A stretch of 64,000 bases of DNA from Patescibacteria group bacterium (GTDB lineage Bacteria; Patescibacteriota; Microgenomatia; PFEM01; JAHIFH01). Shown in pieces: positions 6,437 through 50,768 of this stretch (position 1 is its first letter; each line of letters opens with the position of its first letter). Under the pieces are notes generated by a model that saw only the letters and a list, made by a program, of their open reading frames with translations, was not told the origin of the DNA and searched no databases. Both the position numbers and the translations under genes were made by a program. The stretch is from the NCBI GenBank assembly GCA_035529375.1, contig DATKWU010000018.1, positions 47,956 through 111,955 of the forward strand, written 5' to 3'.

Positions 6437-6718
6437 ATGATGGCAAAAATCTACGTCCAAATCCATGGGCCTAGGCCCCTGGACAGTATCAGCCAGGCAG
6501 TGCATGAGATCATCAAAAAAAGCCAAGGAGAGGCTTCGGTTGAGACTCAAGCATTTGAGCCAACTCTGAAGATCGGAAATACAGACGAGAGAGTCATCGA
6601 GGTAACCATCTTCAGAGATAAAGCTCTGCCAGAGGGTTCTATTATGGAAGCCATAGAGAATATCAGGAAACAAAGGTTTCCACGAACCCAGATCTTCATC
6701 AGCTTCAGACAGAGCTGA
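6437..6718 (+). CDS. Hypothetical small protein (93 aa) in a locally GC-elevated patch
   Basis: A GGGAGA SD-like sequence lies upstream of ATGATG. Composition is ~47% GC versus ~37% in the flanks. It sits between ybaB and recR on the opposite strand. Confidence 0.3.
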   Translation: MMAKIYVQIHGPRPLDSISQAVHEIIKKSQGEASVETQAFEPTLKIGNTDERVIEVTIFRDKALPEGSIMEAIENIRKQRFPRTQIFISFRQS

Positions 6719-6806
6719 TGAAGAAAAAGCTAGGCGGTAGCGAACATTGTGATTCCCTCCTCCGGGAAAACCACAACAATCGCTGCCGCCTATTCAAACT
6801 TTTCCC

Positions 6807-6834
6807 ATAAAAAATTCGCCCAAAAAAAGGCGAA
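6807..6834 (-). terminator. Rho-independent terminator downstream of ybaB (minus strand)
   Basis: Hairpin TTCGCC-loop-GGCGAA followed on the minus strand by TTTTTTAT. Confidence 0.5.
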
Positions 6835-6863
6835 TAAAATTCAAAAAAATAATAATCTTTTCT

Positions 6864-7148
6864 TTACTTCCCTAACAAACCACCTAGTCCCCCACCCATT
6901 TGCTGTAGTTTTTGGGCGGCCACTTCTTGAGACTTTTTAATCGCTTCGTTTAAAACTTCAATCAAATCGTCTTTTTTTTCTCCCTTAATTTCAACGGTTT
7001 GGATTTTTTGATCACCGGTAATCACCACTTTAATACCCTTATCCTCAACCTCAATCTCTTCAGCCGCCAATTCCCGTTGAATGGCCATCGCCTGATCGCG
7101 CATCTTCTTCAACTCTCTCATTTGTTGAAATGAATCAGTAATTCCCAT
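6864..7148 (-). CDS. ybaB: Nucleoid-associated protein YbaB/EbfC
   Basis: 94 aa with a conserved YbaB core (MRELKKMRDQAMAIQRELAAEEIEVEDKGIKVVITGDQKI). It sits in the canonical dnaX-ybaB-recR arrangement. Confidence 0.85.
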   Translation of the reverse strand: MGITDSFQQMRELKKMRDQAMAIQRELAAEEIEVEDKGIKVVITGDQKIQTVEIKGEKKDDLIEVLNEAIKKSQEVAAQKLQQMGGGLGGLLGK

Positions 7149-7180
7149 TGAGAAAAGAATAACGAATTAAGAAAGCTTTG

Positions 7181-8644
7181 TCAATTAGCCCGAGTACCAA
7201 AAATTTCTTCCGCCACCTGGAAAACATCTGGTTCTGATTTTTCTTCTTTAACTATTTCCTCTTTCTGACCCAAAACACAACGCAGTTTAAGTGGTTTGTT
7301 GGCCACTTCACTGACCACCTCTTCGACCACAGACCGACATTTATCTGTTTCCAATCTTTCTTTATGAAATTTATAAAAGACTTCGAGGATTAAAATACTA
7401 CCCTGGACGCTGGATGGTCGACTTGCTTTTAAAAGAGCTTCGACCGAATGATTAAGTGGCCTGACACTATCAAGAACTTCTTGCCAATGATTTTCGATTT
7501 CCTTAAACAATTCACTATCCTGACGACTAGACTGTTTATTAATCACTGGTTGTTCTTCAATTTTCTTTGTTTCCCCAATGATTTCTTTCTGCTCATCTCC
7601 CAACCACTCGACCACCACTAATTCTAAAGGTAATTGAGGAATAGGATTAGTTTTTAAGTCATTAATCGCTTGAGAAAAAAGGCGAATTAGACTAGTTAAT
7701 TCTCTAATATTAAAACCCCTGACTTCCTCAGGCGAACTAATTTCAGTTAAGCCAGCCTGGGATAACAAACCCAAACGAAGTTTGTCCAAAACTTCTCGGC
7801 AATATTGAGACAAATCAGCCCCTAAAGAAACAATCCGATCAATTTCTAAAAGAGAGCTTTTTAAATTTTTTTCAGCCAAAAGTTGTAATAACTTACCCGG
7901 CGCTGTGGCTTCGACTCTACCTAAAAGTTCCTTTGTTTTCTCTAGACTAATTTTCTTTTTTTCCATAGCCAACTGGTCAAGAATCTTTTGGGCATCCCGA
8001 AAACTACCATCAGTTGACTTAGCGATTTCCTCCAAAACCCCTTTTTCTACTTTAAGTTTTTCTCCTTTGATGACCCTCTCTAAGGACCGAAAAATTTCAT
8101 CCTCAACCGCTTTCTTAAAATTTAAACGGAGACAACGAGAAATAATCGTGTCCGGTAATTTCTCTGGCGCGGTCGTACAAAGAATAAAAACCGCGTGTTC
8201 CGGCGGTTCTTCTAAAGTTTTCAACAAGGCATTAAAAGCCTCTTTGGTCAACATATGAACTTCATCAACGATATAGACCTTGTAACGACACTCGCTGGGA
8301 GAAAATTTAATTTTATCCCGCAACTCCCGAACATCATCAATCCCTCGATTCGAAGCAGCATCAATTTCAATTAAGTCAATCGCCCGGCCTTCGGTAATTG
8401 ACTGACAAATTTGACAACGATTACAGGGCTCGTGATCTTTTTTCTTACCAATACAATTAATCGCTTTGGCCATGACCCTGGCCGCTGAAGTCTTCCCAAT
8501 CCCCCTGGGTCCAGAAAAAAGCAAGGCATGAGGAATTTTTTTGGACTTCAAAACTTTGGTTAGAGTTTCGCGGACGTCAGTTAAATCAAGTTCGGAGATT
8601 TTTTGAGGACGATATTTGAGATAATAAACTCTGTTGTCTTTCAT
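7181..8644 (-). CDS. dnaX: DNA polymerase III subunit gamma/tau
   Basis: KYRPQ motif, Walker A (GPRGIGKTS), Zn module (CNRCQICQS), DEVHML box and SRC motif. Confidence 0.9.
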   Translation of the reverse strand: MKDNRVYYLKYRPQKISELDLTDVRETLTKVLKSKKIPHALLFSGPRGIGKTSAARVMAKAINCIGKKKDHEPCNRCQICQSITEGRAIDLIEIDAASNRGIDDVRELRDKIKFSPSECRYKVYIVDEVHMLTKEAFNALLKTLEEPPEHAVFILCTTAPEKLPDTIISRCLRLNFKKAVEDEIFRSLERVIKGEKLKVEKGVLEEIAKSTDGSFRDAQKILDQLAMEKKKISLEKTKELLGRVEATAPGKLLQLLAEKNLKSSLLEIDRIVSLGADLSQYCREVLDKLRLGLLSQAGLTEISSPEEVRGFNIRELTSLIRLFSQAINDLKTNPIPQLPLELVVVEWLGDEQKEIIGETKKIEEQPVINKQSSRQDSELFKEIENHWQEVLDSVRPLNHSVEALLKASRPSSVQGSILILEVFYKFHKERLETDKCRSVVEEVVSEVANKPLKLRCVLGQKEEIVKEEKSEPDVFQVAEEIFGTRAN

Positions 8645-18378: not shown

Positions 18379-19086
18379 TTATTTTTTAATTATTTTTCTT
18401 TTTTTCAAAGCCTCTAAAACCTTTTCGTGAATCTCTTGAGGCGTTAACAAATCATCATCAAAACAATTAATTCTTATCCAATAAGGATATCTTCTTACCA
18501 ATCGCAAATAAACTTCCGAACTCTTTTTTTGATGGTCCAAATCAGCTTCGTGAATATCCCGCCCCTGACCTCCAATATAACCACGATTTCCCTTCTTGTC
18601 AACCAATAGCTGGCCAATAACAACTGGCATATAAAGAAAAATAACAATATCCTCCTTGGGAATACCAAAAATTTCATATTCCAACTTTTCTAAAAAACGA
18701 AGAAATTTTATTTGTTCTTCTTTAGGCAATTTGGCGGTCTGGTGACCCATACTCGAACCTGTATAACGATTAGCGACCACAAGTTTGCCTTGAGTCAACC
18801 ATTTCTCAATTCTTTCCTTGGCTTCAAACCGATCACCAGCATAAGTCAGAGAAGCTAAATAAGGACTGACTTCATCATTGCCACCAAATTCCCCTTTTAA
18901 AAACCGCCCCACTAACTTCCCAAAAAAAGAAGTGTAGTATTGAGGAAAATCAGCCTCTTCAACCTGATAGCCATTTGCTTTTAAATAGAAAATCAACAAC
19001 TTTAACTGAGTTGTCTTCCCGCTCCCATCGGTTCCTTCTAAAACAATAAACTTGCCTTTCTTCGTTTCCTTAACAGGTTTTCTCAT
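18379..19086 (-). CDS. tmk: Thymidylate kinase
   Basis: P-loop FIVLEGTDGSGKTTQ and ANRYTGSSMGHQ (DRY-box equivalent). 4-nt overlap with the upstream kinase gene. Confidence 0.7.
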   Translation of the reverse strand: MRKPVKETKKGKFIVLEGTDGSGKTTQLKLLIFYLKANGYQVEEADFPQYYTSFFGKLVGRFLKGEFGGNDEVSPYLASLTYAGDRFEAKERIEKWLTQGKLVVANRYTGSSMGHQTAKLPKEEQIKFLRFLEKLEYEIFGIPKEDIVIFLYMPVVIGQLLVDKKGNRGYIGGQGRDIHEADLDHQKKSSEVYLRLVRRYPYWIRINCFDDDLLTPQEIHEKVLEALKKRKIIKK

Positions 19087-20141
19087 TTTAGTCTATCCAA
19101 ATGAGTATAATTCCTAACGCCAGCGTAATTAATAACAGCCCATTTTCTATAAGCCCTCTCGCCATGAATCTCAACATGGCAATGCGAACAAACAGGAATA
19201 TAAACATTCTCAACGGCTACTCTTTCTTGATCAATCGGTACTAAAGGCCTCACAACATATTCCTCTCCATCACTAAGCATTCCTTTCCAGTAATAAAGCT
19301 CAGTCAAGGCTTGTGTTTCTGCTCCGGCACCACAAAGACATTGCGGATACATTGTAAAATACTCAATCTCTCTATTTTCTCTCTGAGCCCTTAAGACTTC
19401 TAAAATCGGTGGGAAAGCTTCTCCAGTAGCAAATCTTTCTATAAGTCCACCAGCATACTTTATACCCCTAGCGATAGCAATCTCAGGAATTGTTACCGCA
19501 GCTCTTTCTCTTTGGTAAAGATAAGGCAAAGCTTTAGATTTCCCAAAGGTTATCAAATTAATTTCATCCTGAATAAGCAAATCAACATTACATTTTCTAA
19601 CAACCTCTATAGCTTGAGCGATATCTTCCACCTCAATAAGTTCGACCGAATCAGGAAAAGCCTCAATCAACGACTGATGTCTATCTGCTTTTCTCGCTTT
19701 TGCTGGTCTCAAATGAATAACCTTCAATCCTCTCTTAGCAGCCTCATAGCCTAATCCGGCTAAAAATATACTTTTACCTCCCCTCATCCCTCCTCCTGCA
19801 TACAAAGCTTTGTAATCTGCATCTCCCTCCAAAAAACCATGTCTCTCAACAACAAGTTTAACCATCGCCTCGACCCGAGGACGAGTCTGCCAACCAAGTT
19901 CTCTGTCTGGAGCAAGATAATAATTAACTCCTTGTTCATCCATAATAATATGACCGAACTCGCCATCAACAACTTCAGCGGCTGGTCCTGGAAAAGGAGC
20001 CTCTTCTTCCATAAAAGAAGGTAAAGGTTTTTCCTTTATCTTTGGATCAAAACTTTCAAATCTAATCGACCCTGACCAATGCAAATCAAGATCCTGCTTC
20101 ATTTCAGAAAATCTTGTACAAGGACTATTTTCGGGTGTCAC
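19083..20141 (-). CDS. TK1-family thymidine-kinase-like P-loop protein with ~110-aa N-terminal extension
   Basis: P-loop GGGMRGGKS, a DE box (LLIQDEINLITF) and a C-terminal zinc-ribbon-like CLCG...CSHCH. It is translationally coupled to tmk. The assignment is tentative. Confidence 0.45.
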   Translation of the reverse strand: MTPENSPCTRFSEMKQDLDLHWSGSIRFESFDPKIKEKPLPSFMEEEAPFPGPAAEVVDGEFGHIIMDEQGVNYYLAPDRELGWQTRPRVEAMVKLVVERHGFLEGDADYKALYAGGGMRGGKSIFLAGLGYEAAKRGLKVIHLRPAKARKADRHQSLIEAFPDSVELIEVEDIAQAIEVVRKCNVDLLIQDEINLITFGKSKALPYLYQRERAAVTIPEIAIARGIKYAGGLIERFATGEAFPPILEVLRAQRENREIEYFTMYPQCLCGAGAETQALTELYYWKGMLSDGEEYVVRPLVPIDQERVAVENVYIPVCSHCHVEIHGERAYRKWAVINYAGVRNYTHLDRLK

Positions 20142-20203
20142 AAATTATTAATTCCTTTCTGGGCAGAAAAGAAATAAAAAGGAAGAGTCTAATGTTTTTA
20201 TTT

Positions 20204-21631
20204 TTAGCCCTTATCCTTTTGCGAGTCAAGACTTAAAGTTTCTTCAACTCCTGCTCGCCATTGTTGATAAATCTCTGGATGACCACAGGATTTTGATTCT
20301 TGACACTTACCTTTGTAACAACTAGGTCCAAGCTCTTCAAATAATTCTGGGTAATTTTTAATTGAAACCTCGGCAATCTGAAACATCCAATCACGACTTT
20401 CCCATTGGGCTCTATCACAGAGTCTTCGCTTACCAATATGAAGAATATCAGTGGCATTGGTCACTAAAAACGTAGGTACACTAATCATAACAAGAACCCC
20501 ATGATCAAGTTCTGGCTCCGGAAAACCCAACTCCCGGCCTTTTCCGATAAAAGCCTTTGATAAGCCCAAAGTTTGGAGAAATAATTCTTTGGCTCTGGGA
20601 TTGGCCTCAATTGAAGGCGGAATAACCACCTGATACCTTTTAGCGGCCTCCCAAATCGTCATTGCCCGTCTAATAGGAATTCTATGTCTCCTTATTTCTT
20701 GACCATTAGCTTCACTCATCGCTCCCATAACCAGAAAATGAGGATGTTCAGTCACAGAGGTATGGCCTGATTCAATAATATTCTCTAAAACCCTTAACTG
20801 TTCTTCTCTAGAAAAATCGGTAACAAATTCTGAAGGCGGTTTCTCCTGCCAGCAAGTCTTGGCCGCAACCGCCGCTCGGCCAACTGGATTGAAACTTAGA
20901 GGATGAACAATCACCTCGCCTTCATAACCATATAAATAAGCGGCTCTCATCTCTTCGATTCTCATCCGGTCCTCAAAACTAATTCCTTCTTGCTTAGCTA
21001 CCCTTTTTAAATTTTCAATCGTCATTGGTAACTCTTGACCTAAAGTTTGAAGAACCTCCTCAGCCATATCCCTCATCGCCTGATAGGGTGAATTCAAATT
21101 GTCAATGGCAAAATCAACTAATTTCGGTCCTTGAATGGTAACCACCATATTCGAATCAAAAGACCAAGGAAAAACATAACGAGCGTCTTCTTTAGGAATT
21201 CCCATTTCAACCATCTGATTATAAGCAGCCATTGCTTGGTTCGCTAATTCCAAAAATTGGCCTTCAAACTCAGTTCCCATAATGCATTTAGGAGGATGAA
21301 TCCTGCTAAGATCACCTTTTTCAATATTAATTCTCGCATAACGCCATGACTGGGCGCTGTAAACATCCCTGCCTAAGGTAATTAAATCATGGTCTAATCT
21401 TGGAATATGTTCCAAAGAAAAGCCAACTACGATTCCGGCCAAGGCTTGTCTTAGACCTTCAGCGTTAAAATATTTTTCCGAAACCATTTGTTCAAGAGTA
21501 TCTCTTAATTCAGGCGAACAGCCAATTTCCATCTCTTTAACATGGGCTTCTTCAGGAGGAAAAGGAGATTCGGCTCTAAGACAATAAAGTTCACCTAAAA
21601 GTGGCTCTCTTCCTAATTCTGGCGAGGTCAT
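20204..21631 (-). CDS. thyX: Flavin-dependent thymidylate synthase ThyX, tandem/pseudo-dimeric form (475 aa)
   Basis: C-terminal half carries GHTSVTEH and RHR-x7-T motifs plus QWESRD. The N-terminal half carries a second, degenerate ThyX-like segment (EDARYVFPWSF...). Confidence 0.75.
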   Translation of the reverse strand: MTSPELGREPLLGELYCLRAESPFPPEEAHVKEMEIGCSPELRDTLEQMVSEKYFNAEGLRQALAGIVVGFSLEHIPRLDHDLITLGRDVYSAQSWRYARINIEKGDLSRIHPPKCIMGTEFEGQFLELANQAMAAYNQMVEMGIPKEDARYVFPWSFDSNMVVTIQGPKLVDFAIDNLNSPYQAMRDMAEEVLQTLGQELPMTIENLKRVAKQEGISFEDRMRIEEMRAAYLYGYEGEVIVHPLSFNPVGRAAVAAKTCWQEKPPSEFVTDFSREEQLRVLENIIESGHTSVTEHPHFLVMGAMSEANGQEIRRHRIPIRRAMTIWEAAKRYQVVIPPSIEANPRAKELFLQTLGLSKAFIGKGRELGFPEPELDHGVLVMISVPTFLVTNATDILHIGKRRLCDRAQWESRDWMFQIAEVSIKNYPELFEELGPSCYKGKCQESKSCGHPEIYQQWRAGVEETLSLDSQKDKG

Positions 21632-22199: not shown

Positions 22200-24164
22200 T
22201 TACTTTGGTTTTGTCCAAGAAGCCCAATCACATTTAGGGTAATTGGAGCAACCATAAAATTGTTTGCCTTTTCTAGTTTTCCTGACCACAATTTCCCCAC
22301 CACATTTTGAACACTTGACTCCTTTAAGTTTCGGCACATAAGGAGCCGTGTATTTACATTCTGGAAACCGGGAACAGGACAAAAACTTACCAAACCTGCC
22401 AATCCGAATCACTAGTTTCCCTTGTTTGCATTCCGGACATTTTTCATCAGTGACTTCAGTAGGAATTTGAACCCGCTCGGCCACTTGAGCTACTCCCTCA
22501 AGCTGTTTTTCAAAAGGCTGGTAAAATTCTTTAATGACTGGCACCCATTTTCTTTTACCATTAGCAATTTCATCTAATTCATCTTCCATCTTGGCGGTAA
22601 AATCATAATCAACAATTTCCGAAAAATATTCGACCAAAAAATCATTAACCGTGGTCCCTAAAGGGGTTGGCTGAAAAAGACCTTCTACCTTTTCCACGTA
22701 TTGACGAGTCTGAATCGTAGAAATGATGGGAGCGTATGTCGAAGGCCGACCAATGCCTCTTTCTTCTAAAGCTTTAATTAAAGAAGCTTCGCTGTATCTG
22801 GGTGGCGCCAGGGTGAATTTTTGTTTGGGATTAAGCTTAACCAAATCTAAATCATCACCTTTTTTAACTTCGGGCAATTCCATCCCTCCCTCTGGCTCCT
22901 GCCGATTATCAAGAATTAACCAACCAGCAAATTTAATAATCTTGCCTTCACTGGTTAAAAGATAAATATTTTTCTTAGAAGTGGCTTGGGTTTTAATCTT
23001 CGTTTTATCCCAAAGAGCGGCTTTCATCTGCGAAGCCAAAGCCCTTTTCCAAATCAATTCATAAAGACGTTGTTCTTCACGACCTAATTTTTCAGAAATT
23101 TTATTAGGCGCTCTTTGGATATCAGTCGGTCTAACCGCCTCGTGGGCCTCTTGAGCCACCTTGGATTTAGTTTGATAAAAATAAGGCTTCTCCGGAACAT
23201 ATTCCTTCCCATAAGTACTATTTATATAGGCGCGCATCTTTTCGACGGCTGACTGAGCCAAATTAAAGGAATCAGTCCGATGATAGGTAATCAAACCTTT
23301 TTCATAAAGACGCTGGGCCGCATACATCGTTCTCTTACTGGAAAAACCTAAACGCCGAACCGCATTCTGTTGTAAAGTGGAAGTACTAAAAGGCGGCAAA
23401 GGTCTTTGTTTAACTTCTTTTCTTTCAACCTCGTAAACCTCGTAATTAGCCTTCTTCAAATCATCAACCATTTCTCGAGATTGAGTTTCATTCTCAATCT
23501 TGACTGTCTGGCCATTTTTCTTAATTAATTTGGCTTCAAAAATAGGGGCGTCCTTTAATTGACCACCAAGAAGCTTCTTTAATTTAGCCCAAATCTCCCA
23601 ATATTCTTCAGGAACGAATTTTTCAATCTCTCTTTCCCGATCAACAATCAAACGAACGGTCACTGACTGAACCCGACCAGCTGATAAACCCCGTCGGATT
23701 TTGCGCCAAAGGAGAGGGGAAAGTTTATAGCCAACTAGCCGATCAAGAATCCGCCGGGCTTGCTGGGCATGAACCAAATCAAGGTTAACTTTCTTAGGAT
23801 CAGCCAAAGCTTTTTCAATTGCCTCTTTAGTAATCTCATGGAAAACAATTCGAGCTAAATCATCGGCTTTTCTTTTAAGAATATAGGCAATATGGAAGGC
23901 AATCGCTTCACCTTCGCGATCCGGGTCAGTCGCCAAAAAAATCTTCTTAGCTTTTTTAGCGGAATCTTTAATTTTCTGAATCGCTTCTTTCTTCTGAGGT
24001 ACCAAAGCATATTCAGGTTTAAAGTCTTTTTCGACGTCAATACTTAATTTCTTTTTAGGCAAATCCCGAATATGACCCATCGTCGAAACCACCTGATAAC
24101 CTTTACCCAAAAAGCGAGTTAAAGTTTTTGATTTCGTTGGTGACTCAACAATAATTAAATTCAT
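22200..24164 (-). CDS. topA: DNA topoisomerase I
   Basis: Toprim N-terminus (LIIVESPTKSKT) and C-terminal C4 zinc ribbons. Confidence 0.9.
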   Translation of the reverse strand: MNLIIVESPTKSKTLTRFLGKGYQVVSTMGHIRDLPKKKLSIDVEKDFKPEYALVPQKKEAIQKIKDSAKKAKKIFLATDPDREGEAIAFHIAYILKRKADDLARIVFHEITKEAIEKALADPKKVNLDLVHAQQARRILDRLVGYKLSPLLWRKIRRGLSAGRVQSVTVRLIVDREREIEKFVPEEYWEIWAKLKKLLGGQLKDAPIFEAKLIKKNGQTVKIENETQSREMVDDLKKANYEVYEVERKEVKQRPLPPFSTSTLQQNAVRRLGFSSKRTMYAAQRLYEKGLITYHRTDSFNLAQSAVEKMRAYINSTYGKEYVPEKPYFYQTKSKVAQEAHEAVRPTDIQRAPNKISEKLGREEQRLYELIWKRALASQMKAALWDKTKIKTQATSKKNIYLLTSEGKIIKFAGWLILDNRQEPEGGMELPEVKKGDDLDLVKLNPKQKFTLAPPRYSEASLIKALEERGIGRPSTYAPIISTIQTRQYVEKVEGLFQPTPLGTTVNDFLVEYFSEIVDYDFTAKMEDELDEIANGKRKWVPVIKEFYQPFEKQLEGVAQVAERVQIPTEVTDEKCPECKQGKLVIRIGRFGKFLSCSRFPECKYTAPYVPKLKGVKCSKCGGEIVVRKTRKGKQFYGCSNYPKCDWASWTKPK

Positions 24165-25249
24165 TTCTTTATTGAATATAACATATTACCCAAATTTTTG
24201 ATTTGACCCTTGATTTCCATCAAACTTATAAGCTTCATTACCTGACCAGGATCAAAACCTGATTCCTGGACAATCTCCTCAATAGATTTTGCCTGACTCT
24301 TAAGTAAAAATAAAATCACTTCTTCTTCAGGATTTTCAGCAACTATTTCCTTTAATCTTTTAATTCTAGTCTCTTTGTCAAAACCTAACTCTTCTAAAAT
24401 ATCATCAACCTCAAAAACAAGTTTGGCTCCCATCTTAATTAAATAAGCCGGACCAGCCGCATTTGGCGAAGTAATCGGACCGGAAACAGCAAAAACCTCC
24501 CGGCCTTGTTCGGCCGCATGACGGGCGGTAATTAAAGTCCCAGATTTTTTCGGCGCTTCAATTACCAATGTCCCTAAAGATAAACCAGAAATAATCCTAT
24601 TCCGGGATGGAAAACTGCCTGGCGTGGGTCTCACCCCTAAAGGAAATTCGGAAACAACTGCTCCATGATCCTTAGTAATCTCCTGAACCAAACCAAGATT
24701 CTCAGGCGGATAAACCAAATCCAAACCACAAGCCAAAACGCCAATTGTCCGACCACCAGCTTTTAAAGCAACCCTATGAGCCAAAGAATCAACCCCGCGA
24801 GCTAATCCAGAAACAATCGTCAAACCGGCTTTTACCAGTCCCTTAACCAGGTTTTCCGTCACCTGATAACCGTAATTTGTCATCCTTCTTGTACCTACCA
24901 CCGCCATTGCTAATTTGTCTCGAGGACTGATAGTGCCTTTACTATATAACACAAATGGCGGATTATCTGTCTTTTTTAAGCTTTCTGGGTAACGATTATC
25001 ATCTAGAAAATAGCACTCTATTTCATTTTCACGCAACCGAAGAAAATACGAATCTGGATTAAAGTCACGCCTGAATCTAACCAACCGAGAAGTTAATTTT
25101 GGTCCCAAACCAATCGCCAACAACTCCCCTTTCTTGGCTTGCCAAGCTTTTTTAGCCGAACCAAAATAATTTTTAAGAAGAGCAAATCTTTTAGGACCAA
25201 TTCCCTCAAAAGCCGAAAAAGCTAACCAAGACAATCTCTCTTCATTCAC
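24161..25249 (-). CDS. dprA: DNA processing protein DprA/Smf
   Basis: Rossmann-like core (GTRRMTNYG...SGLARGVDSLAH). 4-nt overlap with topA. Confidence 0.85.
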   Translation of the reverse strand: MNEERLSWLAFSAFEGIGPKRFALLKNYFGSAKKAWQAKKGELLAIGLGPKLTSRLVRFRRDFNPDSYFLRLRENEIECYFLDDNRYPESLKKTDNPPFVLYSKGTISPRDKLAMAVVGTRRMTNYGYQVTENLVKGLVKAGLTIVSGLARGVDSLAHRVALKAGGRTIGVLACGLDLVYPPENLGLVQEITKDHGAVVSEFPLGVRPTPGSFPSRNRIISGLSLGTLVIEAPKKSGTLITARHAAEQGREVFAVSGPITSPNAAGPAYLIKMGAKLVFEVDDILEELGFDKETRIKRLKEIVAENPEEEVILFLLKSQAKSIEEIVQESGFDPGQVMKLISLMEIKGQIKNLGNMLYSIKK

Positions 25250-25288
25250 CCTTCTAGAATAACATAAGAAGTTTCTTGCAAAAAAGTA

Positions 25289-25329
25289 GCGAGGTTTAAC
25301 GCTTTTCCATTCGAATGGAAAGACCTCGC
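25289..25329 (-). terminator. Hairpin (GCGAGGT...16-bp palindrome TTCCATTCGAATGGAA...ACCTCGC) followed by a T-run on the minus strand
   Basis: It lies immediately downstream of the 25343..25774 minus-strand gene and is followed on the minus strand by CTTTTTTGC. Confidence 0.45.
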
Positions 25330-25342
25330 AATAACGTACACT

Positions 25343-25774
25343 TTACGGGTGTAAACCGTTTTCTTGAACTTGAATCGAAACCAATTGGTTTGACGGTTGA
25401 TCTGGATGAGGATCTGTTATTCTCCAGACCAAACAGAGAAGAATCATAGCGATGACCCGATTCGGCTGGCAGTTGAGTATGTCATCTACTAACCAGAAGG
25501 CAATCGGATACGAAACCAGCCCGCTGATGAAAATGTAGAAGCTGGTTCTGGCTATGATTCTATCCGTCATCGTCAACCCAATGACTCCAGTCATGATGAA
25601 GAGGAGTGGGATCAAGATCATATAGAAAAGCACAGGCACCTCCCATAGGAGATGAATGCTAATCTCTCTCATCTGAACCCACCTCAGCCAGGTGCTGAAG
25701 ATATGATACTCGAATATCACAGCAGCACCTATCAGACTGAAGTAGTAGAGTCCCGCCAGTACCTTCTTTCTCAT
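25343..25774 (-). CDS. Hypothetical integral membrane protein (GC-rich islet)
   Basis: 143 aa with about 4 predicted TM helices. Local GC is elevated (~48%). Confidence 0.45.
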   Translation of the reverse strand: MRKKVLAGLYYFSLIGAAVIFEYHIFSTWLRWVQMREISIHLLWEVPVLFYMILIPLLFIMTGVIGLTMTDRIIARTSFYIFISGLVSYPIAFWLVDDILNCQPNRVIAMILLCLVWRITDPHPDQPSNQLVSIQVQENGLHP

Positions 25775-25789
25775 CTCTCCCCCTCTCCC

Positions 25790-26077
25790 TTAGTAGGAAT
25801 TCTTCACCATGAAATAGTGGCAAGCAGCCGCTCCCGAGGCAATGCTCGCAACAATCAGGACCATTCTCGGGATATAGCGCCAAGCTAACGCAGGGTCTCT
25901 TAGTATGAGGAGAAACAGGATTATTCCCATGGCCAAGAGTCCAAATATGCCACCCCACATGAACATTCGATATGGCGGCATTGGCGAAGGGTAACCTATC
26001 TTGTCTATCCTCCAGTAATTGAATGCTGCTACGAATAAACAACCGCCCGCGAAACCCTTCAGTAGATCCCAAAGCAT
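25790..26077 (-). CDS. Hypothetical small membrane protein (GC-rich islet)
   Basis: 95 aa with 2-3 TM helices. A strong SD (AAAGGAGGGAGGGG) lies upstream, and TATAAT at about 26140. Confidence 0.45.
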   Translation of the reverse strand: MLWDLLKGFAGGCLFVAAFNYWRIDKIGYPSPMPPYRMFMWGGIFGLLAMGIILFLLILRDPALAWRYIPRMVLIVASIASGAAACHYFMVKNSY

Positions 26078-26158
26078 GGTCCCCTCCCTCCTTTAGTTTA
26101 CTTTTGAGTGTGCTAAAATCTAATATAAATAGTATTCTATCAATTATTATAGGATTTG

Positions 26159-27832
26159 TCAATCAGTTTTAAACCAGACCTCCATTACTTCTTTGACAAT
26201 CGGCGCGGCCACATAAGAACCCTCGCCTCCAGCTTCTACTAGAGCGGTAACGACAATTTCTGGATCATCCACCGGCGCAAAAGCGGTTAACCAAGCATGA
26301 GTTCTGTCTTCAGGATCGCCAAATTCAGCCGTTCCGGTTTTACAGCCTACTTGAGGACTAAAATCAAAGAAAGGAAAAGCGGTCCCTTCAGGCGAACAAG
26401 CTTCTTTCATTCCCTCTTTGATTAATTTCAAAGTTTCCGGTTTTAGTTTTAAATCCACACATTCAGCAGTCTGATCTCCTTGTTTGATTTTGGGTGAACA
26501 AAGCTTGCCATTATTGGCAATGACACTGGTCATCATATTAACCTGCAGAGGTGTTGTTAACAGGTCTGCCTGACCAATGGCAAAATGATAAGTATTGCCT
26601 AAAAACCATTTTTCGCCAATGGTTTTTTCTTTCCATTCTGGTGTCGGCACTAAACCCTTAACCTCTCCTTTCAAATCAATTCTCGTTTCCCGACCCAAAC
26701 CAAACGCCTTACCCCACTCTGCTAATTTATTGGCCCCTACCCACTCGCCAATTTTGTAAAAGAAAGTGTCGGTTGAACGTTTAATCGCCCTGACTAAATT
26801 AATTTCTCCTTCGGTTCGACCGTATTGAGTGTAATACCAATTCTTGTAAATGTAATCACCAATCTGAATAAAACCTTGGTCTTCATAAACAGTTCCTTCA
26901 TCAACTTTACCCTCCTCAATCCCCGCCGCTACCGTCACAATTTTAAAGGTTGATCCAGGTGGATAAGCCCCACTAATGGCCCGATTAAACATGGGTTTTG
27001 ACTCATTAATTAAATCTTCAGACTTAATCTGATTAGGATCAAAGGAAGGCGAAGAAATGAGTACAATAACTTGGCCGGTTTTAACTTCAGTAACCACCAC
27101 GACCCCTGGTCTGCCTTTTAAGGCCTGGTAAGCTACTTTTGAGAGCTGGGCATCAAGGGAAAGATGAAGATCTTGACCTGGCAGAGATTCTGTCCGACCA
27201 ATTTCCCGAACCCGATTCCCGGCCGTGTCCACTTCATAGATAACACCACCATCCTGACCCCGTAGAATCTTCTCATACTCTTCCTCAATTCCGGTCCGAC
27301 CCACCAAATCACCTAATTGCCATTGATTTTTTCTGACTTCCTCTTCACTCGCCTCGCCTAAGTAACCTAAGACATGGGCCAGAGCCTGACCATAAAGATA
27401 ATCTCGACCGACATCTAAACGCAAATCTGCTTCCTTTTTCCCACCAGCCACCTCAATCCTCAAAGCTTCCTCACGACTAATTTCCTCAAAGCAATCCCCT
27501 TCTTCCAAATCACAATTTTCTTTTTTCAATCGGTAAACCGGTTTGTTTTTAATTAAAGGCTTTCCCTGACGATCATAAATCATTCCCCTGGGCGCCGGAA
27601 TGATTTCTTTTTTAATCCGATTCTCCTCAGCTAAAAGCCTATTTCTGGCGCCAAGAATAATCTGCAATTCAAAAAGACGACCAATTAACAATAAAAAACA
27701 AATAATTAAAAAACCATAGAAAAAATAGATTCTGCCTAAAGAAAACCTATTACCTTGTCTATTTTCTATATCTGATTCTGTCAGAAAAGAAGAATCAGGT
27801 TTAGCGGTGATATCTGTAGAAAGTTTCCTCAT
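26159..27832 (-). CDS. mrdA: Peptidoglycan D,D-transpeptidase PBP2
   Basis: STFK active-site motif (PPGSTFKIV), dimerisation and transpeptidase domains. Follows mreCD. Confidence 0.85.
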   Translation of the reverse strand: MRKLSTDITAKPDSSFLTESDIENRQGNRFSLGRIYFFYGFLIICFLLLIGRLFELQIILGARNRLLAEENRIKKEIIPAPRGMIYDRQGKPLIKNKPVYRLKKENCDLEEGDCFEEISREEALRIEVAGGKKEADLRLDVGRDYLYGQALAHVLGYLGEASEEEVRKNQWQLGDLVGRTGIEEEYEKILRGQDGGVIYEVDTAGNRVREIGRTESLPGQDLHLSLDAQLSKVAYQALKGRPGVVVVTEVKTGQVIVLISSPSFDPNQIKSEDLINESKPMFNRAISGAYPPGSTFKIVTVAAGIEEGKVDEGTVYEDQGFIQIGDYIYKNWYYTQYGRTEGEINLVRAIKRSTDTFFYKIGEWVGANKLAEWGKAFGLGRETRIDLKGEVKGLVPTPEWKEKTIGEKWFLGNTYHFAIGQADLLTTPLQVNMMTSVIANNGKLCSPKIKQGDQTAECVDLKLKPETLKLIKEGMKEACSPEGTAFPFFDFSPQVGCKTGTAEFGDPEDRTHAWLTAFAPVDDPEIVVTALVEAGGEGSYVAAPIVKEVMEVWFKTD

Positions 27833-29197: not shown

Positions 29198-31543
29198 CTA
29201 AGGGGGTATTTCCTGCCAAGTGTAAGAAGGGGTAAAGAGCACTGAAGGAGCAGTCATCAAAAAGTCTGGTCGGTAAACAAATTTCTCTGCTGGTCTTGTT
29301 CTGTTCAAATCCTCTCCTAAATCTCTTGCCAACTCAAAAGACTGAGCCACAAAAACTCCTTCACCCACAAACTGAACATCGTTGCCTTCACCAACTTTAT
29401 CAACCTCAAACTCTTTATCAGTAATAAAGACTCCTTCCACTTGAGTTACTGTTTCCGCTACCTTGATTTTTCCTGAGGCAATAATGGCTAAAAAGCCATT
29501 AACATCAAGATTACTATCAATATTCACCTCATTATCAACTAAGATAACAATTTTTGTTCCCTCAGGAATACTCCAACCATCAACCGTTAAAGCATCAGCA
29601 GTGTAGTAAACTCCAGAATCAGATGGTAAACCACCACCGTAATCTTCTTCAGGTGAACCCAAAAGTTCATAAAAGTAATTGAATCTCTTCCGAGAAAATT
29701 CTGTATTGGCTAACCAGCCTTCCACAGAGACGTTCCCTTCCCCCCAAGGATTATCTCCCAAAGTTTCTTTATGAGAAACCACGCCTGGAGTGCCTCCCTC
29801 ACCCGCTAAACAAAAATTATCATCCTCTCCAGGTAAATCAGAATTAATACTCTCTTGAGAATGAACATCACCTTCTTGAGCCTGAAACCAAGACCCAGCC
29901 GCCTTAGTCAAACCAATATTGATTGTCTTAGTTTCTCCTCCCTCAGTTAACATCACTTGATTAGTCTCATCACCCTCATCATCACAATAAATCGGATCAG
30001 AATACTCTCCAGGAAAAGCAGTCATCATCACTGTATGCAATTGATCTATAGGTACCTCAAAGGAATAATCAGGATCAGGAGTATCTGTACCATAACCGGC
30101 AATTTGAACGGTACCCCCAGAAACGGTTTCCCCTAATTCAGAACAGGAAGATCCTTCAAAAACCGTCCCCTGAATAGTTCCAGTTGGAGCAGGATAAAGA
30201 ATTGAATCGGCACAATAACTCCATTCAGCTGTTTTAAACTTAACTCTTGCCATTACCGAATTTTCGCCAGGATTAAGCGTTAAAGGATAACTGAAATTTC
30301 CACCCTCAGGAATATCCATAACTGACCCCCAGGTAGATCCACTATCAATACTTAATTGAATTTTGCCATCTTCAACCGCTCGAAAGTGCCATATTCCCAC
30401 TTTATGGGTATACATCGCATCATCTACGTAATAAACAAGAGAATTATTAATAACTTCAGCTTCTGCTTCATGGACGTCATCTGTTTTTAGTAAATTAAGC
30501 TCCATATCATAGAGCTCAAAACTATTAACATTACAATCATTTTCAGGATTTTCTTTTTCAGATATCTGGGAGTAAACAAAGAAATATTTCGTTCCTCTAT
30601 CCATCTGAATTGTTCGCTTCCCTGAACTGGTGTAACTAGCGATGATTGCATTTGCCCTTAAGCCATCACTAAGATGCCAACGCATTCCTCGGGAAAAATT
30701 AAGACTACCGTGGCAACCTGTCTTGTTACACATCCTAAAATCAACACTGAAAGTAAAAGATTTGATCACATAACCAGTTGGAGCAGTAACCTTAAGAGCA
30801 GCTCCACACGGTTGTTCGCCGTCACATATTATGTGCTCAGTAAATCTTAACCGACTGTCTCCCGCAAGGTGTCCAAATTTTCCAGGACCACAAGTTAACT
30901 CACAATCATAGCAGGCGTGACTAGAAGGAGCACAAGTAGTTCCAAAAGCAGGATAACAACCGCGACAGGGTTGACCGGCACTTATACAACTCCTTCTTTT
31001 ATACAAACAGCCATTAATTACTTGACCAAACCGGCAAACTTGGTCACCACCTCCTTCTGTGTAGCCATTACCACCCGGTCCAATACCGTAATACTGAAAA
31101 AGATTCCTGAAAGCGTTACCATGATTACCAACATTCCATGTTTCAAGATAGCCCTCATCCCTTAATTGATTGTCACTCTTGCCCTGAATTCGAGGAGCTA
31201 CTTCAATAAAACAGACAGCGTCTCTTTCAGACCCTTTATTATGTACGGCAAAATCATTGGCGAAAAAGGTTTCTTCACCATCAACCGAAAGATTGTAAAC
31301 TTCAACCGGCTCTTGTTTGTATTCAAGTTTAGTGATTTGCTCAGGCACCAAACCCTCTTCTCCCTTAACAAAAACCACATCGCCAATATTTAATTCCTTA
31401 ACCTGAATAAATCCAGCCTCTTTAATCTCCGGTCCAGGAATTTCCACCACCTCTTGCGCATGAATGGTTTTAGAGAAGACGAAGAATAAACTAATTCCTA
31501 ATATCCAATATCCAATATCTCTAACCGAGAGCAGTTTTTTCAT
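29198..31543 (-). CDS. Large secreted Cys-rich protein beginning with a Hint C-terminal (blocks F/G) segment
   Basis: Hydrophobic N-terminus, then GFIQVKELNIGDVVFVKG...VYNLSVDGEETFFANDFAVHN, then ~680 aa of Cys-rich extracellular sequence. Confidence 0.6.
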   Translation of the reverse strand: MKKLLSVRDIGYWILGISLFFVFSKTIHAQEVVEIPGPEIKEAGFIQVKELNIGDVVFVKGEEGLVPEQITKLEYKQEPVEVYNLSVDGEETFFANDFAVHNKGSERDAVCFIEVAPRIQGKSDNQLRDEGYLETWNVGNHGNAFRNLFQYYGIGPGGNGYTEGGGDQVCRFGQVINGCLYKRRSCISAGQPCRGCYPAFGTTCAPSSHACYDCELTCGPGKFGHLAGDSRLRFTEHIICDGEQPCGAALKVTAPTGYVIKSFTFSVDFRMCNKTGCHGSLNFSRGMRWHLSDGLRANAIIASYTSSGKRTIQMDRGTKYFFVYSQISEKENPENDCNVNSFELYDMELNLLKTDDVHEAEAEVINNSLVYYVDDAMYTHKVGIWHFRAVEDGKIQLSIDSGSTWGSVMDIPEGGNFSYPLTLNPGENSVMARVKFKTAEWSYCADSILYPAPTGTIQGTVFEGSSCSELGETVSGGTVQIAGYGTDTPDPDYSFEVPIDQLHTVMMTAFPGEYSDPIYCDDEGDETNQVMLTEGGETKTINIGLTKAAGSWFQAQEGDVHSQESINSDLPGEDDNFCLAGEGGTPGVVSHKETLGDNPWGEGNVSVEGWLANTEFSRKRFNYFYELLGSPEEDYGGGLPSDSGVYYTADALTVDGWSIPEGTKIVILVDNEVNIDSNLDVNGFLAIIASGKIKVAETVTQVEGVFITDKEFEVDKVGEGNDVQFVGEGVFVAQSFELARDLGEDLNRTRPAEKFVYRPDFLMTAPSVLFTPSYTWQEIPP

Positions 31544-31544
31544 C

Positions 31545-32168
31545 TTATTTTAATATTTCACTTACCTTCGCCTGTAAACCAGTAATCAACCGATAAGTCA
31601 GCGTATTTGAAAGAATATCTTTAAATTTATCAAGTGTTGTTTGGAGTTTGGTGCTTGAAGCTTGGTTATTCTCGCCTTTAATGGCGAGGAATGGGTGTTC
31701 TCCCGTCACCTTCACCTTCTTCCCACTTTCAGTTTCCAGCCCATAGTAGCCTTCCCGAATTGTTTTAGTCACATTAGAAACCGTGCCTTCTTTTATTTCC
31801 CCTGTCTCCGGATTAAACGAAGAAACAATCTCACCCGGTTTCAAGTCTTTAATTTGCTTCGTCTCCCCCTTCTGCTCTCCTGCTCTTTCACCCTCCTGTC
31901 CTAAATTAATCTCCGTTTCCCCAGTAAAACAAGGAGCACCACATGAAGAACAGGGGCAACAATATCCATCGGACATTTCGCAACCAACACACAAACAGTC
32001 ACTCCAGGAACAACCATCCCCCATTTGACCCACCTCAATAATGCAACGTCCACATTCACAAGAAATGCGTCCAGTTGAAGTACAAACATCCCCATAAACA
32101 CTTTTTGCCGTAAACATTAGGACACAAACGGTGAATAGCAAAACTAAAATTAAAGTCTTAGTTCTCAT
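31545..32168 (-). CDS. Secreted Cys-rich protein ending in a Hint N-terminal (blocks A/B) segment
   Basis: Signal peptide, ~50-aa Cys-rich module, then CFTGETEI...TGEHPF running to the C-terminus. The stop TAA is followed by G and then the ATG of the next gene. Confidence 0.6.
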   Translation of the reverse strand: MRTKTLILVLLFTVCVLMFTAKSVYGDVCTSTGRISCECGRCIIEVGQMGDGCSWSDCLCVGCEMSDGYCCPCSSCGAPCFTGETEINLGQEGERAGEQKGETKQIKDLKPGEIVSSFNPETGEIKEGTVSNVTKTIREGYYGLETESGKKVKVTGEHPFLAIKGENNQASSTKLQTTLDKFKDILSNTLTYRLITGLQAKVSEILK

Positions 32169-50432: not shown

Positions 50433-50768
50433 TCATTCCTCTTTTTTATTACATTCATAAGTACCTTCTTTAAGAAGATGTGATTCTGCGGCAATTCTAT
50501 TATCTTCGCCGCTCAAAAGGGCATATTTAAAGTAACAATCTTCATTTACCAAATTCCTTTTTAAACAGCTATTTTGTTCGTTTGGCGAAAGATGTTCAAG
50601 ATAGCGTTTTCTAAGATGGAAGGCTCTGCCGACATAAACTCGAGTCATTTTGTCCTTTTCCCCATCATTTCTTAACACCTTATAAATCCCACCAATTTCT
50701 GGTACCTTGTAGGAATTACCCGTTGTGTAGCGAAAACTTGTCGACCATTTTAGATTTTGACAACTCAT
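50433..50768 (-). CDS. Stand-alone GIY-YIG nuclease domain protein
   Basis: GIYKV...YVGRA...R...EH motif pattern. 111 aa. GGAGGTG SD. Confidence 0.6.
   Translation of the reverse strand: MSCQNLKWSTSFRYTTGNSYKVPEIGGIYKVLRNDGEKDKMTRVYVGRAFHLRKRYLEHLSPNEQNSCLKRNLVNEDCYFKYALLSGEDNRIAAESHLLKEGTYECNKKEE

Follow-up and report, generated by a model that had tools for sequence, protein, structure and literature searches.

What is a short, GC-rich pair of genes doing between mrdA and dprA, two housekeeping genes that are direct neighbors in related bacteria? The question is raised by a 64,000-nucleotide (nt) stretch of DNA, here called the window, from a metagenome-assembled genome (MAG) of an uncultured member of the Patescibacteria, in which two tandem minus-strand open reading frames (ORFs) lie within positions 25250–26160. 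A first-pass annotation had read this block as a horizontally acquired cassette of two small membrane-protein genes in an otherwise conserved dprA-topA / mreCD-mrdA neighborhood, and had proposed GC and codon-usage statistics, homology searches and comparison of the junction in related genomes as checks. ORF calling on the window returned the same 143-amino acid (aa) and 95-aa ORFs at the same coordinates (orf143 and orf95). Comparison with relatives shows that the DNA carrying them was inserted, and we consider it likely that the block is a recently acquired, moron-like genomic islet in the chromosome of this Microgenomates/Shapirobacteria-like bacterium. In the direction of transcription, the locus comprises:

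26159..27832, minus strand: mrdA, encoding PBP2, the upstream flank, which closes the mreC-mreD-mrdA block; Pfam PBP_dimer and Transpeptidase domains.
25290..26157, minus strand: the inserted foreign DNA, 868 bp.
25790..26077, minus strand: orf95, 95 aa, with three predicted hydrophobic helices, of which helix 1 is weakly hydrophobic.
25343..25774, minus strand: orf143, 143 aa (NCBI HUV43115.1), with four predicted transmembrane (TM) helices and a polar C-terminal tail of ~25 aa.
24161..25249, minus strand: dprA, the downstream flank, with a GTG start, followed by topA; Pfam DNA_processg_A domain.

The insertion is most clearly seen against the relatives. Scanning genomes with TopA and metagenomes with DprA yielded 92 loci at nested distances from the window. 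In loci L003 and L092, which represent a sister species (PBP2 89% and TopA 95% identical), only 40 nt separate the PBP2 stop codon from the dprA start, a start that is itself supported by alignment with L003 and L004. In L083 and L004 (PBP2 81–84% identical) mrdA and dprA abut or overlap, and the two genes directly adjoin each other in L005 and L007 (61–68%) and in L009 and L018 (about 45%). These 8 related genomes, ranging from the sister species to distant Patescibacteria, therefore all carry mrdA followed by dprA without the insert. Neither orf95 nor orf143 was detected in the 92 loci, except in two copies of the window's own genome, so both genes are absent from every relative recovered. 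Conservation of the pair at this locus throughout the lineage, which the first-pass annotation had named as refuting its reading, is thus not what is seen. Blastn homology to L003 ends at window positions 26171 and 25267. Removal of the 868 bp regenerates a spacer of ~45 nt that can be aligned with the 40-nt spacer of L003 and L092, and the boundary is ambiguous by 1 nt, as one C is common to both junctions. The adjacency of mrdA and dprA at nested distances, together with restoration of the spacer by deletion, identifies the block as an insertion, and the parsimonious history is that it was gained once, after this lineage had separated from that of L003 and L092.

The same junction is found on 9 contigs (6 of 50–200 kb and one >200 kb), and contigs from ENA (ERZ27256834) and Logan (SRR8554512) are 99.99–100% identical to the window. 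This repetition across contigs makes an assembly chimera unlikely. A search with the exact PBP2 sequence found no variant lacking the insert; it returned 8 contigs, all with the same context.

The composition of the islet is equally distinct. The coding block, 25343–26077, has 47.1% GC and is the most GC-rich 735-bp stretch of the 64 kb (z = 2.9 against a mean of 38.6% and a standard deviation of 2.9% for 735-bp windows). At least 47.1% GC is reached by 0.1% of such windows, all of which overlap the islet. The deviation is far stronger at synonymous sites than in overall GC. GC content at third codon positions (GC3) is 0.576 in orf143 and 0.552 in orf95, as compared with a mean of 0.318, a standard deviation of 0.048 and a maximum of 0.414 among 65 window genes, and synonymous-codon log-odds scores place orf95 at z = −7.1 and orf143 at z = −5.9. 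MreD, a native polytopic membrane protein, has a native-like composition (35% GC, GC3 0.30), and a hydrophobic, membrane-protein composition is therefore not the cause of the shift. The contrast described by the first-pass annotation thus holds up when quantified, in GC as in codon usage, although its figure of ~36–38% GC for the flanking genes was too low; dprA has 40.3% and mrdA 42.0%. Codon usage is completely unameliorated, which indicates that acquisition was recent. Atypical composition, an empty site in close relatives and recovery in independent assemblies, the marks of a horizontally acquired islet, are all present here, and the earlier reading of the block as a horizontally acquired cassette is strongly supported.

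Are the two ORFs genes? NCBI annotates orf143 as 'hypothetical protein VMY36_04425' (HUV43115.1). The ORF orf95 is missing from the NCBI annotation of the MAG, yet it was predicted as a gene in the assemblies from JGI, ENA and Logan, and both ORFs are called by independent gene callers. In both called frames, codon composition is strongly period-3, with GC content falling from third to first to second codon positions, and T occupies 41–44% of second codon positions (0.41 in orf95), a signature of hydrophobic coding. Each ATG lies at the correct distance behind a strong Shine–Dalgarno (SD) sequence. In dinucleotide shuffles of the insert the tandem pair arose in 0 of 5000, while a single ATG-initiated ORF of at least 143 aa arose in 24 of 5000. 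From this sequence-level evidence, both ORFs appear to be genes.

Their products are predicted to be polytopic inner-membrane proteins with three and four TM helices. Single-sequence AlphaFold2 models place helices of orf95 at residues 2–27, 35–60 and 62–94 (predicted local distance difference test score, pLDDT, 77) and those of orf143 at 2–36, 45–68, 72–100 and 104–120, followed by a short C-terminal helix (pLDDT 70.6). Hydropathy peaks match the modeled helices in both ORFs, and the helical models count as further evidence that these are genes. The four helices of orf143 agree with the original count of about four, and for orf95, previously given two to three, three are predicted, the first being the weakly hydrophobic one. 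The two are not paralogues and show no relationship to one another.

The islet is bordered by expression signals that appear to be only partly its own:

26134..26162, minus strand: sigma-70-like promoter match TTGACA-17-TAGAAT with an extended −10 TG, 11/12, the best match in 24–28 kb; a consensus match only.
26146..26173, minus strand: overlapping alternative promoter match TTTAAA-16-TATAAT, 10/12.
26081..26094, minus strand: SD site of orf95, AAAGGAGGGAGGGG, 3 nt 5′ of the ATG; duplex energy −12.1 kcal/mol.
25775..25789, minus strand: 15-nt spacer GGGAGAGGGGGAGAG, which is the SD of orf143 and keeps orf95 and orf143 in one frame; duplex energy −11.1 kcal/mol.
25280..25329, minus strand: terminator-like element, consisting of the insert hairpin GCGAGGT...ACCTCGC, then TAC, then a native TTTTTT.

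The TATAAT that had been proposed as the promoter is present at 26151–26146, within the alternative match, yet the best match is instead TTGACA-17-TAGAAT at 26162–26134. The TTGAC of its −35 (26162–26158) is the native stop-codon context of mrdA, also found at the empty site of L003 and L092, and the remainder of the match comes from the insert. At the other end, the hairpin and T-run noted before dprA are likewise present. The hairpin (25329–25289) is two-tiered, with an RNA folding energy of −16.8 kcal/mol (z = −1.7), and the T-run (25285–25280), 3 nt from the stem, is native spacer homologous to CTCTTTTT in L003. A consensus terminator scan did not call the element. As both the −35 TTGAC and the T-run are native, the promoter and the terminator are best seen as donor/recipient hybrids formed at the junctions. 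The earlier description of self-contained signals is therefore only half right: the insert carries the hairpin and the −10, and the −35 hexamer and the T-run are recipient sequence.

The strong SD seen initially is borne out by the duplex energies. Such SD–anti-SD energies are matched by only 1 of 65 window genes (mean −2.1 kcal/mol), in a rough comparison that takes native gene starts from the longest ORF. On the same rough footing, native genes mostly lack a strong SD, and the gene at 50433–50768 stands out along with those of the islet.

Where the cargo came from is not revealed by homology. For either protein, a word-indexed search of 5.8 billion clusters retrieved nothing but the query itself, and a full HMMER scan with orf143 against 1.84 billion sequences representing about 15 billion proteins likewise recovered orf143 alone. 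Nothing significant was found for either protein in Pfam, NCBIfam, PHROGs or PADLOC (0 PADLOC families), and neither has a sequence match in the PDB. The sole Pfam match, DUF2754, scored 19.9 bits against a cut-off of 25.8 and was rejected as hydrophobic-bias noise. Tblastn of both proteins against phage and plasmid collections was negative, as were IMG/VR scans and a blastn comparison of the complete islet with phages and plasmids. The homology and profile searches proposed at the outset thus returned no homologue beyond the proteins themselves.

Several known kinds of element were compared with the islet. Phage morons were reportedly described by Juhala et al. in 2000. Morons have a GC content that differs from that of neighboring genes and carry their own promoter and terminator, and the first moron product described, gp15 of phage HK97, is a small inner-membrane superinfection-exclusion protein (PMC3594210). 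Like the HK97 gene 15 element, the islet is extra DNA between genes that are adjacent in relatives, differs from its surroundings in GC content (47.1% against 38.6%; GC3 0.55–0.58 against 0.32), has promoter-like and terminator-like ends, and encodes small inner-membrane cargo. Its likeness in promoter and terminator is partial, as the 11/12 promoter match has a mostly native −35 and the hairpin from the insert is followed by a native T-run, so that both are in part recipient sequence. Unlike a moron, it lies in a bacterial housekeeping region instead of a phage or prophage, and it holds two genes, not one.

Genomic islets, in a second comparison, are strain-specific ORFan insertions that arise by illegitimate recombination after DNA uptake, either homology-facilitated or double illegitimate. 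The insert resembles them in being <1 kb of foreign DNA without integrase, transposase, target duplication or terminal repeats, in having a clean empty site in relatives, and in lying in a recipient that encodes DprA. No target-site duplication, terminal inverted repeats or flanking direct repeats were found at 25290/26157, the islet contains no integrase, recombinase or transposase, and neither ORF is transposase-like by Pfam or NCBIfam. An insertion sequence, miniature inverted-repeat transposable element or transposon was rejected for want of terminal inverted repeats, target-site duplication and transposase. An integron gene cassette, which would have a promoterless ORF, a 3′ attC site of 57–141 bp with paired R″/L″...L′/R′ cores, and an integron integrase or array around it, was rejected as well. 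The coding strand has one GTTRRRY (25300–25294) and one RYYYAAC (25478–25472) attC-type core, 178 nt apart and at roughly chance frequency, the islet has its own promoter-like site, and its flanks are housekeeping genes.

A third comparison concerns function. Small superinfection-exclusion and immunity proteins, such as P22 SieA, T4 Imm, HK97 gp15 and bacteriocin immunity proteins, are polytopic or bitopic, constitutive, horizontally mobile and often ORFan-like. The islet proteins are likewise small membrane proteins, and the analogy is a functional one only; unlike those systems, they show no sequence or specific fold similarity and have no linked phage or bacteriocin genes.

From these observations we propose how the islet arose. 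An 868-bp fragment from a donor of higher GC content (about 47–50%) would have entered the ~40-bp mrdA–dprA spacer and integrated by illegitimate, probably microhomology-guided, recombination. The donor's −35 and terminator tail may have given the microhomologies for a double illegitimate event. DNA uptake is plausible as the preceding step, since the genome encodes DprA. At the left junction, native TTGAC and the TG-TAGAAT of the insert would together have made a near-consensus promoter, and the two-gene operon could be transcribed both from it and by read-through from mreCD-mrdA. The insert hairpin, abutting the native T-run, would terminate transcription only in part, leaving dprA-topA still expressed. 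Partial termination is probable because of the modest z-score of the hairpin, the 3-nt gap before the T-run and the silence of the consensus scan, and it fits the need for dprA-topA expression, as these genes are contiguous with mre-mrdA in relatives.

The products of orf95 and orf143 probably assemble in the membrane. Our best guess at what they do there, offered with low confidence and by analogy, is a constitutive protective role at the envelope, such as a block to the entry of phage DNA or immunity against a toxin that acts on membranes. The analogy with HK97 gp15 and the strong, constitutive-looking expression signals are the reasons for it. A fuller scenario, which we regard as more speculative and rather unlikely in its entirety, is that the genes represent a new family of small membrane proteins from an unsampled donor, for example a phage or the host bacterium of the episymbiont. 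Natural transformation would have brought them in, microhomology-mediated recombination would have captured them and in doing so created the promoter and terminator, and they would serve as a new envelope protection module, by blocking phage entry or giving toxin immunity, or as a modifier of the MreCD–PBP2 elongation machinery.

Some observations weigh against a moron-like islet with a working pair of genes. The surroundings are housekeeping genes without a prophage. The promoter and terminator are consensus matches only, the terminator being non-canonical in its 3-nt gap and its z of −1.7, and the SD comparison suffers from its approximate gene starts. Finally, all recovered copies are identical and purifying selection is not visible, so the ORFs could be neutral passengers.

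That last possibility is the most serious rival. Under it, the islet would be donor DNA whose genes are useless here and which has been neither deleted nor ameliorated yet. The identity of all copies is compatible with this, as are the fully unameliorated composition, which bespeaks a recent event, and the absence of a homologue anywhere searched, which leaves no sign of conservation. On the other side, Patescibacteria genomes are small and streamlined, and useless DNA is less expected in them. The insert also splits a set of genes that relatives have as an operon, and it lies upstream of the essential topA, where a useless, hairpin-bearing insert should be costly. Both ORFs, both SD sequences and the near-consensus promoter are intact, and the insert appears to be fixed, being present wherever an assembly has this mrdA. 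We hold neutral passenger DNA to be less likely than not, yet a serious alternative.

The initial suggestion of a toxin/immunity or holin-like pair, in which one protein would permeabilize the membrane and the other restrain it, fares worse. Two small tandem TM proteins in a foreign cassette with its own expression signals would suit it, and orf95 resembles class I holins (lambda S type, 3 TM, about 100 aa) in its size and predicted three-helix layout. Yet no holin, toxin, immunity or defense model was matched in Pfam, NCBIfam, PHROGs or PADLOC, the PHROG and Pfam matches at E ≤ 10 being only TM-bias noise. The neighbors are PBP2 and DprA, with no lysis cassette and no endolysin or toxin gene; more broadly, no endolysin, bacteriocin, transporter or phage gene was found near the islet. 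Holins typically carry a highly charged, hydrophilic C-terminal domain. In contrast, orf95 stops 4 residues (KNSY) after helix 3, and the tail of orf143, RITDPHPDQPSNQLVSIQVQENGLHP, has about 4 charged residues in 26 with a net negative charge, which makes it polar and acidic and not densely charged. A dual-start motif is lacking, neither protein is related to the other, and a constitutive strong promoter with strong SDs suits a lethal pore-former poorly. Together, these features render such a pair improbable.

The two ORFs might instead be one 7-TM gene of ~244 codons, split by a nonsense codon into a pseudogene or read through to give a single protein. They do share a frame, parted by a single TAA and 15 nt, and read-through would yield 244 aa with seven helices. 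Frame sharing has a 1 in 3 chance of occurring by itself, however, and the 15-nt spacer is a strong SD correctly placed before an ATG. The fused 244-aa sequence matches no Pfam family, and the lack of any match to orf143 among 1.84 billion proteins implies that no full-length 7-TM relative exists in that database. We treat orf95 and orf143 as two genes because the fusion matches nothing and the spacer is itself a strong SD, and we give a split gene somewhat less credence than a holin-like pair.

It is very improbable that the block is not coding or not real, whether as a structured RNA, a fragment of a gene in another frame or an assembly chimera. Structured RNAs classically show up as GC-rich islands where the genome is AT-rich, and both such an island and a total absence of protein homologues are found here. 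Rfam, however, has no family on the islet even at E ≤ 10, and at the gathering score the whole window yields two tRNAs only. The period-3 composition fits the called frames, and the ORF pair was absent from all 5000 shuffles. ORFs in other frames have no Pfam match, and a 167-aa alternative-frame ORF is disfavored by the period-3 composition and the shuffle test. The recurrence of the junction on 9 contigs and the matching ENA and Logan contigs speak against a chimera. Least probable of all, and effectively refuted by the nested empty sites and the foreign composition taken together, is that the genes are ancestral and were lost in all relatives, for which nothing specific speaks beyond the deletion bias that makes loss common in reduced genomes, and which would need independent, precise losses at several nested tree depths while leaving the foreign GC3, codon usage and SD strength unexplained.

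The islet is not the only accessory DNA seen at this junction in the group. In the more distant relative L010, a gene for a 23S_rRNA_IVP four-helix bundle (Pfam 8e-16) occupies the mrdA–dprA junction at 6606–6992. In L011, also a more distant relative, a 254-aa PaaX/Cas2-like gene and a small ORF lie there at 6522–7713, the small ORF having a weak, below-cut-off match to Phd/YefM antitoxins (E 3e-5). Judged from these loci, accessory genes appear to have landed in the mrdA–dprA spacer repeatedly.

Elsewhere in the window, the flanks mreC-mreD-mrdA and dprA-topA are syntenic across the lineage, and two other regions differ from the sister species. Upstream of mreC, at 29198–32168, lie genes for two proteins, one of 781 aa without a Pfam match and one of 207 aa whose matches, to Hint/intein splicing, are weak. 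Their identity to the L003 counterparts is only ~40%, as compared with 81–95% for the mre-mrdA-dprA-topA block, and the region looks like a fast-evolving one, possibly encoding surface proteins. The interval between the dCMP deaminase and thymidylate kinase genes, at 19083–21631, holds the gene for a ThyX-domain protein of 475 aa and a 352-aa ORF. The corresponding interval of L003 (12537–14887) has ORFs of 525 aa and 260 aa, which by eye appear to be divergent ThyX-like and thymidine-kinase-like; tblastn at 1e-5 gives no match between them and the window's pair. This suggests gene replacement between the window and its sister species in the thymidylate-metabolism cluster.

What occurred between mrdA and dprA was a recent horizontal gene gain of an ordinary sort. 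The islet probably acts at the cell envelope, a reading put forward only tentatively. Such events are well known, the cargo is ORFan, and ORFan membrane proteins peculiar to one strain abound, so the islet opens no major question alone. It is nevertheless a very clean case, a single, recent gain in a bacterium of the candidate phyla radiation, free of mobility genes and with exact empty sites available for comparison. Its signals join a donor half to a recipient half, and it could serve as an example of how episymbionts that are streamlined and encode DprA acquire foreign genes and wire them in.

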